From the IMG/VR virus record IMGVR_UViG_648276708_000003: a stretch of DNA of 64,000 nucleotides; one strand, written 5' to 3'. Below are positions 26,225 through 60,125 of the stretch, piece after piece. This DNA is from a virus. The stretch's first letter is position 1; every line of letters starts with the position of its first letter. The notes under the pieces are model-generated. The model was not told the DNA's origin. It made no database searches and worked only from the letters and a program-made list of their open reading frames with translations. Position numbers and translations under genes: made by a program.

Positions 26225-26253
26225 TTGACGCTAAATTAGAAAACCCTTAGATT
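26225..26253 (+). promoter_or_regulatory. Sigma70 promoter overlapped by candidate C1-like operator
   Basis: TTGACG-17-TAGATT; minus strand 26234-26253 AATCTAA-GGGTTTTC-TAATT. Confidence 0.65.
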
Positions 26254-27261: not shown

Positions 27262-27780
27262 GTGCTTTTTGACGCGCAGTTTTTTACCGGATGCCCCACC
27301 TTTGAGCAGTATGCGCGCCGTCAAAAGACGCGCGACGGCTTGGGCCGTGGGCTTTCGGTTTTTGCCGACATGGCTATGGACGTCGGCATTTTCAAAGTAC
27401 CGAAGCAGGAGCTTATGTCGCGCAGCGGCATGAGTAACCGCCAGCTGAACTATTTCGGCGGCGTGAAGGGGATCAGTTACATCTTGAGAAAATCATTAAC
27501 AGAAGGACGCGGACGCATGACTACGGCACAGATCGAAGGTTTGAGCAAAATTGGAATCGGTGCCATTACGTGCAGCTATGACCGCGCCTTGCTGAAGATG
27601 AAAGAGGATCCGGAATTGCTGATGCGCCGGGAAGCGTGGGAGGCGGGTTACTTTGTGTCGCTTGAGCAGGAGCATGAAGGCTGTGACGTGCTGATACTGA
27701 CCCGACCGGACGGCGACGTTGAGATACACGAACTGAGCATTAACGATATGCGCGTCAGCGACTGGGTAGTTATCAGCTGA
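27262..27780 (+). CDS. Hypothetical protein, C-terminal DUF2829/Tad2-like domain
   Basis: SYDRAL.KMK...LMRREAW..G.F and LS.NDMR.SDW.V. Confidence 0.55.
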   Translation: MLFDAQFFTGCPTFEQYARRQKTRDGLGRGLSVFADMAMDVGIFKVPKQELMSRSGMSNRQLNYFGGVKGISYILRKSLTEGRGRMTTAQIEGLSKIGIGAITCSYDRALLKMKEDPELLMRREAWEAGYFVSLEQEHEGCDVLILTRPDGDVEIHELSINDMRVSDWVVIS

Positions 27781-28076
27781 TGGGCCAGGATAAGCCATAC
27801 CACTACCATACTGTCTGCTACATGGGCGACAACGGGAAGATGAGATCCGGAATCGTCCAGCTGGCCACACGTCAGATTTCCCGCCAGACGCTTGAGAACG
27901 TCCGGGCTACGCTTAGCTTTGACGAAAACGCAGTGCTGATCTCGCACAGCTACCTGGGCAGGATGACGCAGACAGAGTATGAGACCGGCGAGATCAAGGT
28001 GCCGTCTGTACTGCTGAACGTGCTGATGATTATCACTGTGGCCGCCATAGCCGTAACGGCGCTGAAACTGCTGTAA
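27780..28076 (+). CDS. Hypothetical protein with C-terminal TM anchor
   Basis: Coupled to upstream stop; hydrophobic C-terminus. Confidence 0.65.
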   Translation: MGQDKPYHYHTVCYMGDNGKMRSGIVQLATRQISRQTLENVRATLSFDENAVLISHSYLGRMTQTEYETGEIKVPSVLLNVLMIITVAAIAVTALKLL

Positions 28077-28082
28077 CCCTCT

Positions 28083-28115
28083 GCTGGTGGCGGAGTCCAC
28101 GGTAACGCCACCAGC
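28083..28115. repeat. Hairpin whose arms each contain a Chi octamer
   Basis: GCTGGTGGCG-13 nt-CGCCACCAGC. Confidence 0.7.
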
Positions 28116-28138
28116 AATCTCACCTTGATAGTTTAATC

Positions 28139-28158
28139 AAATCTAAGAAAACTCTTAG
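28139..28158. promoter_or_regulatory. Candidate C1-like operator
   Basis: AAATCTAAGAAAACTCTTAG, exact reverse complement of 29532-29551. Confidence 0.6.
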
Positions 28159-28217
28159 GCAGTGGTTAATTTCGAGTTATCATCCGCCGCAAATTACACG
28201 CGGATCTGATTCTCAAT

Positions 28218-29507
28218 ATGACTACACTCGCTCCACTCCAGCAGCTGCAAAATCTCCCTGTATGCAACGTCGATGACGATGTTCTGCACCAGGCGTTTGT
28301 CACCGCTTACAGCCAGCTTAATTCCATCCGTAAACGCCTGACGCTTGATGACCTGGAGCTGCGCCTCCTTGATAACTGCACGAACGCTCTGGAGCAGATC
28401 CAGATCGATATCGGCATGCGGCTCAATCATGAGGCTGACACCTACAACCTGCTATTAGACGCACTGGAGCAGGTACAGCAGCAGCTGGGTGCGCAGTCCG
28501 CACTGGTCAACGAAGTAACAAAAATTCGTCTCGATGCCGAGAACGCCATTGAAGATGCCCGTGAGGCGGCTACTCAGAGGGTGCTGGAGGCGGACAACCG
28601 CGTAATTAATGCAGAGAATCAGCTTGAGGGTATCAGGTCTGCCCTGACCACCGCGCAGCTGGCGTTTACCTCTGTCTCACAGGAATATGAACAGTATCGC
28701 CGCAAGAATCCTGAGCGCCTGGCGCGAGACCTGAATGAGCGTGACAAAACCATTTCACAGCTGCGCGCCGATCGCAAAAAAGACAGCCTTAAGCGGCAGG
28801 AGTTACAGATCAAACTCAACATCGCGGATAAGGTTGTCGGAGAAGAGCGCCGCCAGCGCGCCGCGACGGCCAATGACCTGATGAAGACTACCGCTCTTTA
28901 TAACCACCTGAAGGAGCGTGTCGAGTTTCATGATGGCCGGGAAGATGTGCAGCAGTTCCTTCTTCAGCTGCCGGATGGCTCTGGCGACGTGGGCTGCTAC
29001 ATCTACAACTTCCACTTTGGCCTGAGCGTTTTCCACGGTGTTCGGGACGTGTCTATCGAGACGGCTGATTTCCACTTCCAGATCCGTACCGCGATGATGC
29101 TGGCAATGGACGTGGTGCCGGGAATATGGGGCAATCCGGTCTTCCGCCTGCTGCCTGAGCTTGCGCCGATGTGGGACACGGCTATCAATGACGAGCTGCA
29201 CACACGGATCATGAAGCGCCTGGCGCAGGATTTCCCGCGTCTTCACCAGCGCATTCTTGACGGCAAGGCTGCGCCTGTTTCCGAGCTGGCCATACCGACA
29301 CGCCTCCTTAACGTTCTGACAAAGGCCGGGTATGAGACGGTTGCAGATGCTGGTGGTGAGTTACCTGACGAGCTGGCAAAAGTGAGGGGGCTGAGTGAGG
29401 CCTCAGCGATTGAAATTCGTGCTGCCGTGAACAGCTGGTGCATAAAGTGGGCGCAGGCGAACGGCGACATTGAGAACATCAGAAACCCCAAAGTAAAGCG
29501 CCGCTAA
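28218..29507 (+). CDS. Coiled-coil protein with C-terminal RNAP alpha-CTD-like domain
   Basis: Long heptad region; APVSELAIPTRLLNVL..AG..TV.D...L.KVRGLSEASAIEI. Confidence 0.7.
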   Translation: MTTLAPLQQLQNLPVCNVDDDVLHQAFVTAYSQLNSIRKRLTLDDLELRLLDNCTNALEQIQIDIGMRLNHEADTYNLLLDALEQVQQQLGAQSALVNEVTKIRLDAENAIEDAREAATQRVLEADNRVINAENQLEGIRSALTTAQLAFTSVSQEYEQYRRKNPERLARDLNERDKTISQLRADRKKDSLKRQELQIKLNIADKVVGEERRQRAATANDLMKTTALYNHLKERVEFHDGREDVQQFLLQLPDGSGDVGCYIYNFHFGLSVFHGVRDVSIETADFHFQIRTAMMLAMDVVPGIWGNPVFRLLPELAPMWDTAINDELHTRIMKRLAQDFPRLHQRILDGKAAPVSELAIPTRLLNVLTKAGYETVADAGGELPDELAKVRGLSEASAIEIRAAVNSWCIKWAQANGDIENIRNPKVKRR

Positions 29508-29524
29508 CCCCTCCTTTCATGCTT

Positions 29525-29583
29525 TGAAAATCTAAGAGTTTTCTTAGATTTTCATTGCTTAATTACTCCGTTTTGTGTACATT
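29525..29583 (+). promoter_or_regulatory. Palindromic C1-like operator and adjacent sigma70 promoter
   Basis: TGAAAATCTAAGA-GTTT-TCTTAGATTTTCA (13-bp arms), then TTGCTT-17-TACATT. Confidence 0.7.
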
Positions 29584-29935
29584 CCTCCCCGCTGACAAGA
29601 GCTTTACGGCTCCGTGCAAAAATCATAATAGGCATTTGGCGGATTACTCATAACTGTCTGTTTAATCCGCTCTTTTTTCACAAATCAGAGTCTATTCCAG
29701 AGTAGGCTTTGCTGTGTGTAGTAGGGTTTTTGCCCCGGTAGTTTCCGGGCTTTTTTTCAGGTTCAGCCGTGAGCGCATCAGGGTGTGCTGACGGCTGAAA
29801 CGGGGAAAACGCTTTAGCAAGCGAGGCAAACGCACTGCAAATCTGGCGAGGTTTCCTGACCTCATACGTGACGCAAGCGGGCAGGTTGACCAGATACCTA
29901 AGTGTCCGCGCCGGGTATGCACCGGCAAGTATTCA

Positions 29936-30008
29936 GCATGGGTAGCGAAGAGGCCGAACGCAGAAGTTGTTAAGTCCGCCGCCGGTTCAAATCCGGCCCC
30001 ATGCACCA
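29936..30008 (+). tRNA. Degenerate tRNA (Asn-GTT-like) with broken anticodon stem
   Basis: Acceptor GCATGGG/CCCATGC plus ACCA, T arm GCCGG-TTCAAAT-CCGGC, loop TTGTTAA; anticodon stem mismatched and short. Confidence 0.55.
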
Positions 30009-30485
30009 GTTCGTAACGGGCCGCCCCGGTTATTACCTTTTCCGGGTGTGTTATGAGTAGGGTGAACGGCAAGTAGCCCCTCCTGTCATGGCAGTGAACG
30101 CGGTTGATGGACTAATCCCGCGCAAAGAATGCCCCATGAGGCTTAAACACGTACCCGCCTGATCCTCGTAAGGGATCACTATTTGTGAGCGTGCTGGTGC
30201 TTCTGTTGTTTTACTGGCGTTTGGCGAAAGATTACCTCTGTCAGCGCGCTCACAAATGGGGGAATGCGGCTATGCGCACGCGGGACGGAACAGTTACCTG
30301 ACGTTTTGCAAATTCCTTTACATGACCCGTCCGTAGATTCCGTAACGGACAGCTGGTGGCACCAGCCCCCCATGCACTACACGTCAACACCAGGCGAAGC
30401 CCTGTTTACTGGCTAATTTGGCTGGTGGCAGAGCAGGTCAGCGGCAGACCTTAACAGTTCGTGACGGCTGGGAAAGACCAGCCCA

Positions 30486-30559
30486 TAACGGCGAGGACAC
30501 TGAAAGGTGACTTTAATGAACACCTGGCGCGTGGTTGCTCAGTGTTCTCGACCGTTGTG
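30486..30559 (+). repeat. Long-hairpin motif, copy 1
   Basis: AACGG-CGAGGACACTGA..TCAGTGTTCTCG-ACCGTTGTG. Confidence 0.5.
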
Positions 30560-30748
30560 GTGATCGCTTTAACACACCGTAGGAGTTGTGGATTCGGAAT
30601 CCACGGGGCGAAAGCCTTGTCTGTGAATTAACACTGGCGGTCAGCGATGGGCTGCGAAAGCAAAGCGGGTTTAAGTCCCGCCTCATTGAACAATCGCGCT
30701 AACGGAAAACGGTCACAACAACCCCATTCCCCCACGGCAGGATGCGAT

Positions 30749-30877
30749 ATGTCGTTATCAGAGTTTGCTGCAGAGCACCCGTTCCTCACTGTGATTTATG
30801 CGCTGGTGGCCATCTATGCCATCGAGACATTTATTAAGGCGGTAAGAGGCGGCAGGAAGAAGCAGCGCCGCAAATAG
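30749..30877 (+). CDS. 42-aa single-TM peptide with basic tail
   Basis: MSLSEFAAEHPFLTVIYALVAIYAIETFIKAVRGGRKKQRRK; AGGA upstream. Confidence 0.5.
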   Translation: MSLSEFAAEHPFLTVIYALVAIYAIETFIKAVRGGRKKQRRK

Positions 30878-30884
30878 AGCACAC

Positions 30885-30934
30885 CAACAGGAAAGAGCAT
30901 TGGACTAGGTATGATCAGTGCTCTATCCGTTGTG
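30885..30934 (+). repeat. Long-hairpin motif, copy 2
   Basis: CAACAGGAAAGAGCATTG..CAGTGCTCTATCCGTTGTG. Confidence 0.6.
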
Positions 30935-33459: not shown

Positions 33460-33479
33460 ATTATACAATCCTTAGAATT
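33460..33479 (-). promoter_or_regulatory. Candidate C1-like operator upstream of lpa
   Basis: Minus strand AATTCTAAGGATTGTATAAT; P1 lpa is C1-controlled. Confidence 0.6.
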
Positions 33480-38701: not shown

Positions 38702-39781
38702 TTATTTTTCCTGATTTTTCAGGTTACTTTCCAGCTCTCGCAGGAGGCTGTACATGTTGCGCATATTCTTTCCGGCGCGTGGCTCTTCGCCACCGTAGCG
38801 CTTGCGGATCTCCGGCATGGTCAGCTGTTCGGTATCGCCTGCAGCAACCTTCTTCTCTAGCAGCGCCCAGTCGTATGCTTCCAGCTTTTCCAGCAGGTCA
38901 CGGTTTTCGTCGATTTCAGCCTTGAACAGACGTGCTTCTTGCGCGTCCTTTGCCTTCGCAATCTTCGCCTTTGCCCTGGTCTCAAACTGAGTGCGGCGCG
39001 TGTTCACCGTATAGGCCACAGAAGAACGCTGAGCGGCCAGCTGCTTGCTGTAATCCACGTCTTCAATCGTGTACAGCTTGGCATTCGGCAGTACTGAGCA
39101 TGCCACAGGGGAAATCGCGTCGTAAGAGGACGTGTAACCGCCGTTGCTGTTAACGTTCAGCCTGATATCACGCTCTTTGTTCAGCTTTTCACCGTAGATA
39201 AGCATGCCGTGCGCGCCATAACGAAACGATTCGCCCTCGTCTTTTTTGTCGTCGGTGTAGCGCGCAGTCACCTGAATGTCAGAGTAGTTGCTGGTGCGGG
39301 CGCGGTACATTGCGCCAGGCGCTGCGGCTTCAAACGCCTTCATTTCGTCTTCCAGTGACATGATGGCACCGGCAGCGAACGGAACCTTGCGCAGCTTGCC
39401 GATCTGCTTCTCATAACGCTTCAGGATATCTTCGCGGGTGTGGTTCGCGGTCGCCGTAGCGCGGAAGCGGTTGATAGTGACGTGCTTCGGCTCAACGATC
39501 AGGGTCGGCACCGGCAGGTAAAGGTTAGTCGTAATAGCGATAGAGCGCGCCTGACGTTTCTCTTCTGCCAGGTCGGCAAAGCTCTGCCAGTCGGCCAGCA
39601 GGTGCTCTGCGCGCTGAAAGGTCTTCTTGTCAGTAATAAAGCCGATCGGGCGGCATTCTTCGCCCATAGCGTTTTTATCAATGAAAATCTGGTTGTCCGT
39701 GATGAGAGTCAGCCACTCTTTTTGTACCTGTAGAAAATGTTTATAGCGCTTCTCAAATTCTACATCGCTGAAGTTAGGCAT
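38702..39781 (-). CDS. c1: C1 repressor homologue
   Basis: LYLPVPT and SSYDAISPVAC..LP.AKLY.I.DV align with recalled P1 C1; position between pacB and lox/cre. Confidence 0.8.
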   Translation of the reverse strand: MPNFSDVEFEKRYKHFLQVQKEWLTLITDNQIFIDKNAMGEECRPIGFITDKKTFQRAEHLLADWQSFADLAEEKRQARSIAITTNLYLPVPTLIVEPKHVTINRFRATATANHTREDILKRYEKQIGKLRKVPFAAGAIMSLEDEMKAFEAAAPGAMYRARTSNYSDIQVTARYTDDKKDEGESFRYGAHGMLIYGEKLNKERDIRLNVNSNGGYTSSYDAISPVACSVLPNAKLYTIEDVDYSKQLAAQRSSVAYTVNTRRTQFETRAKAKIAKAKDAQEARLFKAEIDENRDLLEKLEAYDWALLEKKVAAGDTEQLTMPEIRKRYGGEEPRAGKNMRNMYSLLRELESNLKNQEK

Positions 39782-44350: not shown

Positions 44351-44370
44351 AATCTAAGGGTTTGGTAATT
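44351..44370 (+). promoter_or_regulatory. Candidate C1-like operator in promoter spacer
   Basis: AATCTAA-GGGTTTGG-TAATT following TTGTAT. Confidence 0.6.
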
Positions 44371-58825: not shown

Positions 58826-59048
58826 TTAGTCTATTCATGGTAAGCGTTAGTCTATTCATGGTATTCATTGCCATAGAACGCTAAACGTTAGTCTATTCAT
58901 GGTGTGCCAGGTGTCTCACCCGCATGACGCTTAAAATTGCAGCTATTTCCCAACATTTACCATGAATAGACTAATGCCGCCCATGAATCACCTAACGTTA
59001 TGCGCGCTCTACCGGTTTTCACCTAACGTTCACCATGAATCACCTAAC
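58826..59048. repeat. incA-type copy-control iterons
   Basis: Three inverted (58826, 58846, 58887) and three direct (58960, 58981, 59033) copies of CCATGAATMRMCTAAC. Confidence 0.88.
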
Positions 59049-59049
59049 G

Positions 59050-59934
59050 TCAATCGGCTGGTAACAGTTCCGGGCGACGCGAGTGGATCTGGAAGTACAC
59101 CACCCCGTCTTTCTTCACTTCTGAGTAGGTCAGATAGCCTATCTTCTGTAGCTCCTTCATAGCGTTTCTCACCGCCAAATTTTGCGCACTGATACTGGAT
59201 GTCAGATTAAGCCGCTCACGTAATCGCTCCAGTGATATCTGTATGAATCCATTTGGCATACTTTCGATATATACATACAGAGCTTGAGCTGATTCCTTGC
59301 GTGGTAATGCCTGTATGGCCTTAAGCTGCAACAAGACTTTATGATCAAACGCATATAGCTCCCATAGCCTGGAGTCGCCCTCCAGCGAGATAACGTCTCT
59401 CTCAATGTCGAACGTAGCGCTCTGCAGTAAGTGGGTAATAGTGCCTTTGCTGCCGTCTTTGTTTTTGAATGAAATTACAATGGATGCAATGCGGCTAAGT
59501 GACGCAAAAAAACGATCACGCGCACGCTGGTTGATGTCATCAACAGCGATGCCCGTCAATTTGGCAAATTCAGTAAAAGGCAACTCGATTCGATTGGAGT
59601 GGTCGCCATATTTAGAGAACGCCCGAATAGCTCCTATCCACGTCTTGAAGTCTGTACTCATATCAAGGCGACTACCGCGGATGTTGATGTTGGTATAGCC
59701 CTCCGCCTTAGCTATTTCGAGCTCGCGCAAGTCTTCCGAAGCGTCAATATTGGAGTTTCCACGTCCGGATATGGGCTTATTTTTGGCCGATGGGACAAAG
59801 ACTCCTAAGCGCATCAATGCTATTGGCTGGACGGTTCGATTAGCCGTTGGTGTCAGTGTATAAGTCTTCCCTTCTTCACCACCAACAAATGATAAGGCAT
59901 CACTTATTGTCTTGATTTGATTACCATTTCCCAT
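59050..59934 (-). CDS. repA: Plasmid replication initiator RepA (P1/RepFIB-like)
   Basis: TVQPIALMRLGVFVP, LEIAKAEGY, RLDM.TDFKTWIG, AQALY.YIES. Confidence 0.93.
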   Translation of the reverse strand: MGNGNQIKTISDALSFVGGEEGKTYTLTPTANRTVQPIALMRLGVFVPSAKNKPISGRGNSNIDASEDLRELEIAKAEGYTNINIRGSRLDMSTDFKTWIGAIRAFSKYGDHSNRIELPFTEFAKLTGIAVDDINQRARDRFFASLSRIASIVISFKNKDGSKGTITHLLQSATFDIERDVISLEGDSRLWELYAFDHKVLLQLKAIQALPRKESAQALYVYIESMPNGFIQISLERLRERLNLTSSISAQNLAVRNAMKELQKIGYLTYSEVKKDGVVYFQIHSRRPELLPAD

Positions 59935-59977
59935 TGATATCGCCTGGTTGTAGTGATGTGAATATTTATGAACGCAG

Positions 59978-60078
59978 CCATGAATAGACTAACACACTAC
60001 CATGAATAAACTAACAATTGCCATGAACAGACTAACATTCAACATGAATAGACTAACTATTACCATGAATAGACTAAC
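59978..60078 (+). repeat. Origin (incC-type) iterons, five copies
   Basis: CCATGAATAGACTAAC at 59978, 60000, 60021, 60042, 60063. Confidence 0.92.
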
Positions 60079-60125
60079 ACTAAGCCCTATTTTTCATATT
60101 AAATTCAATTACTTGAAAGTGAGGT

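Follow-up and report, generated by a model that had tools for sequence, protein, structure and literature searches.

PmgS of a Pantoea P1/D6-type phage-plasmid: a long helical hairpin carrying a C-terminal (HhH)2 domain

Sequence comparison identifies the gene described here as an orthologue of pmgS. It is carried by a Pantoea phage-plasmid of the P1/D6 type, ~90 kb in size. In the AlphaFold model, its product forms a long helical hairpin with antiparallel arms; at the base of the hairpin sit a beta domain specific to the family and, at the C-terminus, an (HhH)2 domain. We propose, with about even confidence, that PmgS is a dispensable, early DNA-associated accessory protein, and neither a capsid scaffold nor an RNA polymerase decoy.

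PmgS is conserved across P1/D6-type phage-plasmids and in some other temperate phages. The family was already known as an uncharacterized one, and the name of the RNA polymerase alpha subunit C-terminal domain (alpha-CTD) is already attached to it in RefSeq; because that database names the domain, the finding is a modest one. This analysis adds the Pantoea lineage, whose operator sequence is its own and whose promoter lies between pmgR and pmgS; a residue census of the C-terminal domain across the family; and, for the modeled structure, a tie between alpha-CTD and the RAD51 N-terminal domain (NTD) in an exhaustive structure comparison. An early, repressor-controlled PmgS with a DNA-type (HhH)2 end, encoded beside recombination genes, would correct the current label and steer work toward DNA transactions. 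P1 is a classical generalized transducer and the Pantoea element is saturated with Chi, and in this setting an accessory that works on recombination intermediates would matter in practice.

Identity of the gene and its genomic setting

The analysis covered a window of 64 kb, i.e., the whole stretch of DNA. Two genes are central to it:

28218..29507, + strand: pmgS coding sequence, 429 aa (PHROG 1660 match; end-to-end alignment with P1 PmgS)
27780..28076, + strand: pmgR homologue, 98 aa, with a C-terminal hydrophobic helix and a shared SYLGKMT motif

An earlier note on this DNA had called the longer of these two open reading frames, and its coordinates, strand and length were borne out exactly. 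Its identity as pmgS follows from a match to phrog_1660 (E = 1e-111, with PmgS residues 20-423 aligned to positions 9-404 of the 405 in the profile), from end-to-end alignment with P1 PmgS (P1_gp093; 22% identity over 1-422, E = 5e-22 by BLASTP), and from the gene order darB-ulx-pmgM-pmgR-pmgS...lpa-pacAB-c1, which is that of phage D6. The D6 orthologue, orf9, is 25% identical to the Pantoea protein. Both P1 PmgS and D6 orf9 share with Pantoea PmgS full-length homology and the same three-part architecture, but differ from it in sequence, with only 22-25% identity. P1 and D6 also resemble the Pantoea element in having pmgR upstream and lpa-pacAB-c1 downstream of pmgS, and in the probable logic of a repressor-controlled early promoter.

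Existing names for this protein point in different directions. The PHROGs annotation of phrog_1660 is "PmgS-like head morphogenesis", the D6 record (MF356679) labels its orthologue "putative prohead scaffolding protein", and the RefSeq name of an orthologue is [quoted passage not shown].

Non-mobilizable Pantoea plasmids of ~90-95 kb are 87-88% identical to the DNA around pmgS. Their annotation includes a portal, a head protease, a 2290-aa DarB-like SNF2 protein, olxA/ulx and a VRR-NUC protein (pmgM), as well as pmgS, tciA/B, lpa, ParM, pacA/B, a repressor and a Cre-like recombinase. In synteny with the PmgS family, the gene has pmgR upstream and lies between darB/pmgM and lpa-pacAB-c1; darB-ulx is upstream and a Tad2-like ORF adjoins it. 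pmgR is the conserved upstream neighbor of pmgS in P1/D6-type phage-plasmids, and by alignment the SYLGKMT motif is common to the homologue found here, P1 PmgR, D6 orf10 and three other loci.

Megablast of the pmgS region against phages gave no match, and PmgS had no curated family match. PADLOC returned no defense match for PmgS or its three upstream neighbors, and ARAGORN detected no tRNA within the 64-kb window. Chi sites numbered 74, against 2.6 expected.

Architecture of PmgS and the fold of its C-terminal domain

The coding sequence can be divided, on the basis of the model, into three parts:

28275..28934, + strand: N-terminal helix and long antiparallel helical hairpin, residues 20-239, with the turn at N164-P165 (AlphaFold, pLDDT mostly 85-96)
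28935..29270, + strand: beta domain and two helices, residues 240-351 (domain model, pLDDT 95)
29271..29462, + strand: (HhH)2 domain (alpha-CTD/RAD51-NTD-like) and long C-terminal helix, residues 352-415

An exhaustive search recovered 62 relatives among 1.8 billion representatives, and a 37-sequence family alignment was built from it. The AlphaFold model of PmgS made from this alignment had a mean pLDDT of 88.5. It consists of a helix at residues 20-40; two further helices, the very long 45-163 and 165-239, which form an antiparallel hairpin; a four-stranded beta domain (246-302); two helices (321-351); and a compact helical end domain (361-415), whose C-terminal helix is followed by a basic tail (416-429). 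P165, the turn proline of this hairpin, is shared by 33 of the 37 sequences. When residues 232-429 were modeled alone, pLDDT was 95 and pTM 0.88. The earlier note had described about 230 residues of coiled coil followed by a central globular part. The former was roughly right, as the model has ~215 helical residues in an intramolecular antiparallel hairpin, and the latter is present as the beta strands and the two helices behind them.

Residues 240-351 are the best-conserved part of the family (37 sequences). A PDB profile search with this beta domain gave nothing better than E = 1.6; for the central domain, BFVD contained nothing at E<=0.001 and an ESM Atlas feature search yielded no usable match. 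The ESM Atlas structure search returned only the PmgS family and HhH-bearing proteins. Structure searches aligned nothing outside the C-terminal part. The lack of matches carries little weight, and since these searches were dominated by the HhH2 domain, we make no claim of a new fold for residues 240-351.

The C-terminal domain had been read from the DNA as resembling alpha-CTD, and the profile search agreed. Whole PmgS matched Pfam PF03118 with E = 5e-6 and 26.6 bits over residues 351-404, which passes the gathering cutoff of 23.8, and the C-terminal 100 aa alone scored 29.4 bits with PF03118 and 13.4 bits with HHH_5, whose cutoff is 27. Likewise correct was the residue map: aligned by MAFFT with E. 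coli K-12 RpoA, without gaps, PmgS keeps the equivalents of R265 (R362), N268 (N365) and S299 (S396) and has lost those of G296 (S393) and K298 (A395). In alpha-CTD, the 265 determinant, responsible for DNA binding, is made up of R265, N268, C269, G296, K298 and S299. With V in place of C269, S in place of G296 and A in place of K298, PmgS retains three of these six positions (R, N and S). The 261 and 287 determinants of E. coli alpha-CTD are the sigma70 and CRP contacts. The first is mostly lost (D258 is S, D259 is E and E261 is A), and so is the second, in which T285-E286-V287 has become L-P-D, with E288 and L289 kept. Identity to E. coli alpha-CTD is 21%. The NCBIfam RpoA equivalog scored 21.9 bits over residues 350-410 against a cutoff of 277, and PmgS has no alpha-NTD. 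The HhH2 core is slightly acidic, with a net charge of -3, a value that does not separate DNA-binding from protein-binding readings.

These data bear on the proposal of the earlier note that PmgS is an early-lytic decoy for activators, NusA or UP elements. As a surrogate, the free domain would compete with the host RNAP alpha subunit for UP elements, class I activators, NusA-AR2 or other alpha-CTD partners and redirect early lytic transcription. Besides the PF03118 score above the gathering threshold, with HHH_5 below it, and the kept equivalents of R265, N268 and S299, such a role would agree with phmmer results, in which whole PmgS found genuine PF03118-domain proteins at E-values of 1e-6 to 5e-4. 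The best single structural match, to B. subtilis alpha-CTD, and the probable early expression of the gene also speak for it. However, PF03118 is widespread outside RpoA, where it occurs in repeat proteins and sigma-region-4 fusions, both also recovered by the family search, and in small phage proteins, so that the domain alone is no proof of mimicry. BLASTP of the C-terminal 90 aa of PmgS against E. coli RpoA was not significant, and the loss of the G296 and K298 equivalents and of most activator- and sigma-contacting residues further argues against a decoy.

The signal is also not family-wide. Whereas the C-terminal domain of Pantoea PmgS reaches the Pfam alpha-CTD threshold, P1 and D6 PmgS match neither PF03118 nor HHH_5 at E<=1, and at E<=0.01 the family is split, with HHH_5 found in 11/37 members and alpha-CTD in 9/37. 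The equivalent of N268 is kept in only 4 of the 37 sequences, K/R occurs at position 265 in 22, and G is present at position 294 in 32 and at 296 in 27. The family consensus K-G-h-G-x-K-T-A corresponds to a canonical HhH hairpin; the second hairpin of Pantoea PmgS is degenerate, reading G-L-S instead of G-h-G. The family profile matched the Brr2 HLH (1.7e-6), the RAD51 NTD (2e-6) and Thermus alpha-CTD (2.5e-6), and also NusA AR (1e-4) and L32e at comparable E-values. The earlier note had named, as a refuting outcome, a domain that scores only as a generic HhH; this is not the case for Pantoea PmgS and half the case for the PmgS family.

In structure comparison, matches within 1 Z unit were counted as tied. 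Alpha-CTD matched with Z = 9.1 (rmsd 1.9 A over 64 residues), followed by RAD51D (9.0), RAD51C-NTD (8.8), AF1548 (8.8) and yeast Rad51 (8.7), so the Z-scores of alpha-CTD and the RAD51-family NTDs are tied. Foldseek gave an rmsd of 1.2 A to both alpha-CTD and the RAD51 NTD, in the latter case over 59 residues. The SAM and NusA-AR protein-binding domains matched as well, at Z 5-7. The PmgS end thus shares with bacterial alpha-CTD the (HhH)2 fold, a profile score above threshold and three contact residues, but it is not joined to an alpha N-terminal domain and has lost the G296, K298 and C269 equivalents along with most of the 261 and 287 determinants. It fits the N-terminal (HhH)2 domain of RAD51/RadA equally well (Z 8.7-9.0) and is further linked to it by the family profile and by a recombination-gene neighborhood in several PmgS phages; it differs in that PmgS is without the ATPase core and carries its (HhH)2 domain at the C-terminus, where a coiled coil and a beta domain precede it.

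Because the family profiles are split, E-values are similar, Z-scores are tied, determinants are lost and PF03118 is broad in occurrence, the likeness to alpha-CTD is non-specific. For the modeled structure, a sound description places the PmgS end among (HhH)2 domains of the alpha-CTD/RAD51-NTD type. As a specific claim, the alpha-CTD mimic or decoy was not supported, and we regard the surrogate reading as very unlikely. Very unlikely too, in our assessment, is its fuller form, in which PmgS is a free alpha-CTD surrogate on a coiled-coil arm that, early after induction, takes UP-element-like DNA, or activators and NusA-AR2, and diverts host transcription. If true, this would be a phage strategy undescribed so far.

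Promoters and operator-like sites around pmgS

The following sites and the candidate regulator were found in the window:

28141..28160, - strand: upstream operator-like site, 17-mer GCCTAAGAGTTTTCTTA, half-sites TCTAAGA/TCTTAGG (kept in L001)
29530..29546, + strand: downstream operator-like site ATCTAAGAGTTTTCTTA, with perfect palindromic half-sites (kept in L001)
26236..26252, - strand: operator-like 17-mer, copy 3, with 0 mismatches; a TTGACG hexamer lies next to it
44352..44368, + strand: operator-like 17-mer, copy 4, with 2 mismatches
28156..28183, + strand: predicted sigma70 promoter TAGGCA-16-TATCAT for pmgS (kept in L001)
29555..29583, + strand: promoter-like TTGCTT-17-TACATT, directed away from pmgS into an ORF-poor region (kept in L001)
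28081..28117, + strand: hairpin of two inverted Chi octamers after pmgR, with Chi at 28083(+) and 28108(-)
38702..39781, - strand: divergent C1 repressor homologue, 359 aa, similar to P1 C1; candidate operator binder

Two candidate C1 operators had been noted on either side of pmgS. The sites are real and conserved: TCTAAGA-N4-TCTTAGR occurs in the 64 kb only at 28142-28159 and 29531-29548 (0.09 expected), and the pair is kept in an 88%-identical Pantoea plasmid (L001). For the broader 17-mer ATCTAAGRGTTTTCTWA, four copies were found (at 26236, 28144, 29530 and 44352; 0.23 expected). Weaker copies of the core lie at 33461 and, as GCAATTCTAAGG on the - strand, ~100 bp upstream of the start of the C1 homologue.

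The P1 C1 operator consensus had 0 matches in the 64-kb window at up to 3 mismatches, so that by sequence the flanking sites are not P1-type operators, and their palindrome was not found in D6. The C1 homologue is itself divergent (22% identity to P1 C1, E = 4e-13; 30% to a C1 with Pfam PF27008), and a diverged operator is therefore to be expected. From sequence we infer that the flanking sites may be C1 operators of this lineage. A search of exact k-mers, aimed at a widely dispersed operator, gave only Chi-related words and the replication iterons.

The upstream site overlaps the -35 element of the pmgS promoter, and TAGGCA-16-TATCAT is the only promoter-like site predicted within 27600-30900. 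In L001 this -35 reads TAGACA; the upstream operator, promoter and leader are kept there, and the sequence just 5' of them has drifted. In the P1 annotation, the C1 operators Op86a/b precede pmgR-pmgS. The two elements thus differ in layout, as the Pantoea operator and promoter are located between pmgR and pmgS, whereas the P1 operators are upstream of pmgR. Taken together, the Op86a/b layout of P1 and the operator-like site and promoter of the Pantoea element suggest that an early, repressor-controlled gene is the conserved logic. The earlier designation of pmgS as early-lytic thus gains support both from an operator-like site over the -35 of a conserved sigma70-type promoter and from Op86a/b.

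The downstream operator adjoins a separate promoter that points away from pmgS, and therefore most likely belongs to the next unit, serving its TTGCTT-17-TACATT promoter. The Chi-octamer hairpin after pmgR is likely a transcript boundary or insulator; compared with L001, its stems are kept and its loop has diverged. We also considered the inverted sites as the ends of a mobile cassette. This was rejected, since every P1/D6-type relative has pmgS as a syntenic backbone gene and each site lies against a promoter of its own.

The head label, protein-binding readings and a proposed role in DNA transactions

The PHROGs and D6 labels imply a head or PmgR-linked role, in which the HhH2 domain would be a protein-binding end comparable to the helix-turn-helix of the P22 scaffold. 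pmgR is essential in P1 for head completion, and it is directly upstream of pmgS in six P1/D6-type elements, abutting or overlapping it in P1 and L007. A long helical protein is typical of scaffolds, and PmgS resembles phage scaffolding proteins (P22 gp8, PF06810) in being elongated and helical with a small helical end domain. In contrast to these proteins, PmgS is encoded outside the head module, has a probably early, repressor-controlled promoter, is dispensable in P1 and lacks a profile match: Pfam gave no Phage_scaffold match for Pantoea PmgS, and E = 0.77 for P1 PmgS. In the Pantoea element, pmgS is separated from the portal and protease genes by the 6.9 kb darB and six more genes. The pmgR neighbor is kept only in P1/D6-type elements. 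In the sampled loci outside these types, which are non-P1 phages and prophages without a PmgR neighbor, PmgS relatives occur in early regions and never beside portal, protease or capsid genes.

Genetic data on P1 point the same way. Five of the P1 deletions made had a plaquing defect, and the in-frame deletion of pmgS was not one of them; in the remaining 24, neither plaquing nor antirestriction was impaired (PMC9024508). By CRISPRi, P1 pmgS was also non-essential (PMC10695390). PmgS was not named among the reported P1 virion proteins, nor in the main text of the deletion study, whose authors know of no separate P1 scaffold and consider that the 120-aa N-terminal propeptide of the capsid protein probably fills this role (PMC9024508). 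A head role therefore appears quite improbable, and the "head morphogenesis/scaffold" label is probably wrong. The P1 deletion has no phenotype and so offers no genetic lead to a pathway.

HhH2 and SAM-like domains can bind proteins, as in NusA AR1/AR2, and PmgS could alternatively be a protein-binding adaptor in host takeover or counter-defense, its HhH2/SAM-like end and beta domain binding a host or phage protein. Its position downstream of darB-ulx (antirestriction) and next to a Tad2-like ORF would suit this role, as would the acidic HhH2 core, the SAM and NusA-AR structural matches and the locus of Aeromonas phage ST4, where genes for a large ADP-ribosyltransferase, a NUDIX hydrolase and an endonuclease come before that of the PmgS relative. 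On the other hand, antirestriction was unchanged in the 24 non-essential P1 deletions, and pmgS was among the deletions constructed (PMC9024508). Neither PADLOC nor any other family search gave a match, and the family consensus retains the DNA-type G-h-G hairpin. We consider an adaptor function unlikely.

The role we favor for PmgS, that of an accessory associated with DNA, can be outlined as follows. pmgS would be silent in the prophage and expressed early after induction, as in P1 with Op86a/b. The (HhH)2 end and the basic tail would grip the DNA backbone without sequence specificity, in the manner of RAD51-NTD, alpha-CTD and further HhH2 modules; the beta domain may provide a family-specific activity or contact, and the hairpin arm of ~115 residues may space or oligomerize PmgS heads. 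Early expression, contact with the DNA backbone and an arm would together make PmgS an accessory in early phage DNA transactions, i.e., recombination, replication intermediates or preparation for packaging. The degenerate hairpin, the loss of K298 and the acidic HhH2 core of the Pantoea protein are real caveats that count against DNA binding.

Genes found near PmgS relatives, sampled at about ten loci for their association with recombination genes, are consistent with a DNA-associated role. A better fit than the decoy is the alternative in the earlier note, in which PmgS would be an HhH DNA-binding module on a recombination-type scaffold, given neighbors such as RecT, exonuclease, RdgC, VRR-NUC and DNA methyltransferases; together with the Chi density, these recombination and methylation neighborhoods suggest recombination or replication intermediates as the putative substrate. 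One relative directly follows a RecT-like annealase near an integrase (L010), and another has an MT-A70 methylase on one side and an RdgC/FtsK-gamma protein on the other, an exonuclease being encoded upstream (L013). Others follow YfdP and DUF2303 (L011) or a C5-methylase (L008), and that of Vibrio phage douglas precedes a methyltransferase. In P1/D6 types, a VRR-NUC gene is found near pmgS.

Reuse of the PF03118 domain outside RpoA

Exhaustive searching with whole PmgS (1.8 billion representatives) returned bacterial proteins of 267-1444 aa (P0042, P0043, P0052 and P0063) in which two alpha-CTD-type domains are joined to a sigma70 region 4 domain, and others (P0050 and P0062) that consist of arrays of 6-11 alpha-CTD-type repeats. 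These combinations and arrays show that the PF03118 domain is a module that has been widely reused.

Neighborhood of pmgS

The following features flank pmgS.

27262-27780, + strand: 172-aa ORF, preceded by the VRR-NUC gene and followed by pmgR
27780-28076, + strand: pmgR, product with a C-terminal hydrophobic helix (also in the related loci L003, 5429-5728, and L006, 7592-7885)
28081-28117: hairpin 3' of pmgR, its arms two inverted Chi sites
29936-30005, + strand: match to the Rfam tRNA model

The C-terminus of the 172-aa ORF matched the Tad2-like family (PF11195) below threshold (E=4.6e-4; 21.1 vs 25 bits), and Tad2-like genes are present in the corresponding neighborhoods of the related loci L006 and L012. 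The membrane-like helix of PmgR occurs in Pantoea and D6-type elements, whereas the PmgR proteins of P1 and the related locus L007 lack it. In the hairpin, comparison with the Pantoea relative revealed conserved stems and a diverged loop.

The tRNA-model match (40.9 bits, gathering threshold 29) has an encoded CCA end and lies in an ORF-poor stretch 3' of pmgS; ARAGORN called no tRNA in the whole window. In D6, the corresponding position is occupied by three tRNA genes, which lie on the other strand.

Chi sites and candidate iterons

The window contains 74 Chi octamers (GCTGGTGG), compared with 2.6 expected, and those on the + strand predominate up to approximately 45 kb. P1 is likewise known for its high Chi density.

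58826-60079: 13-mer (ATGAATAGACTAA), seven copies in two clusters of opposite orientations

These repeats resemble replication-initiator iterons of the plasmid replicon.
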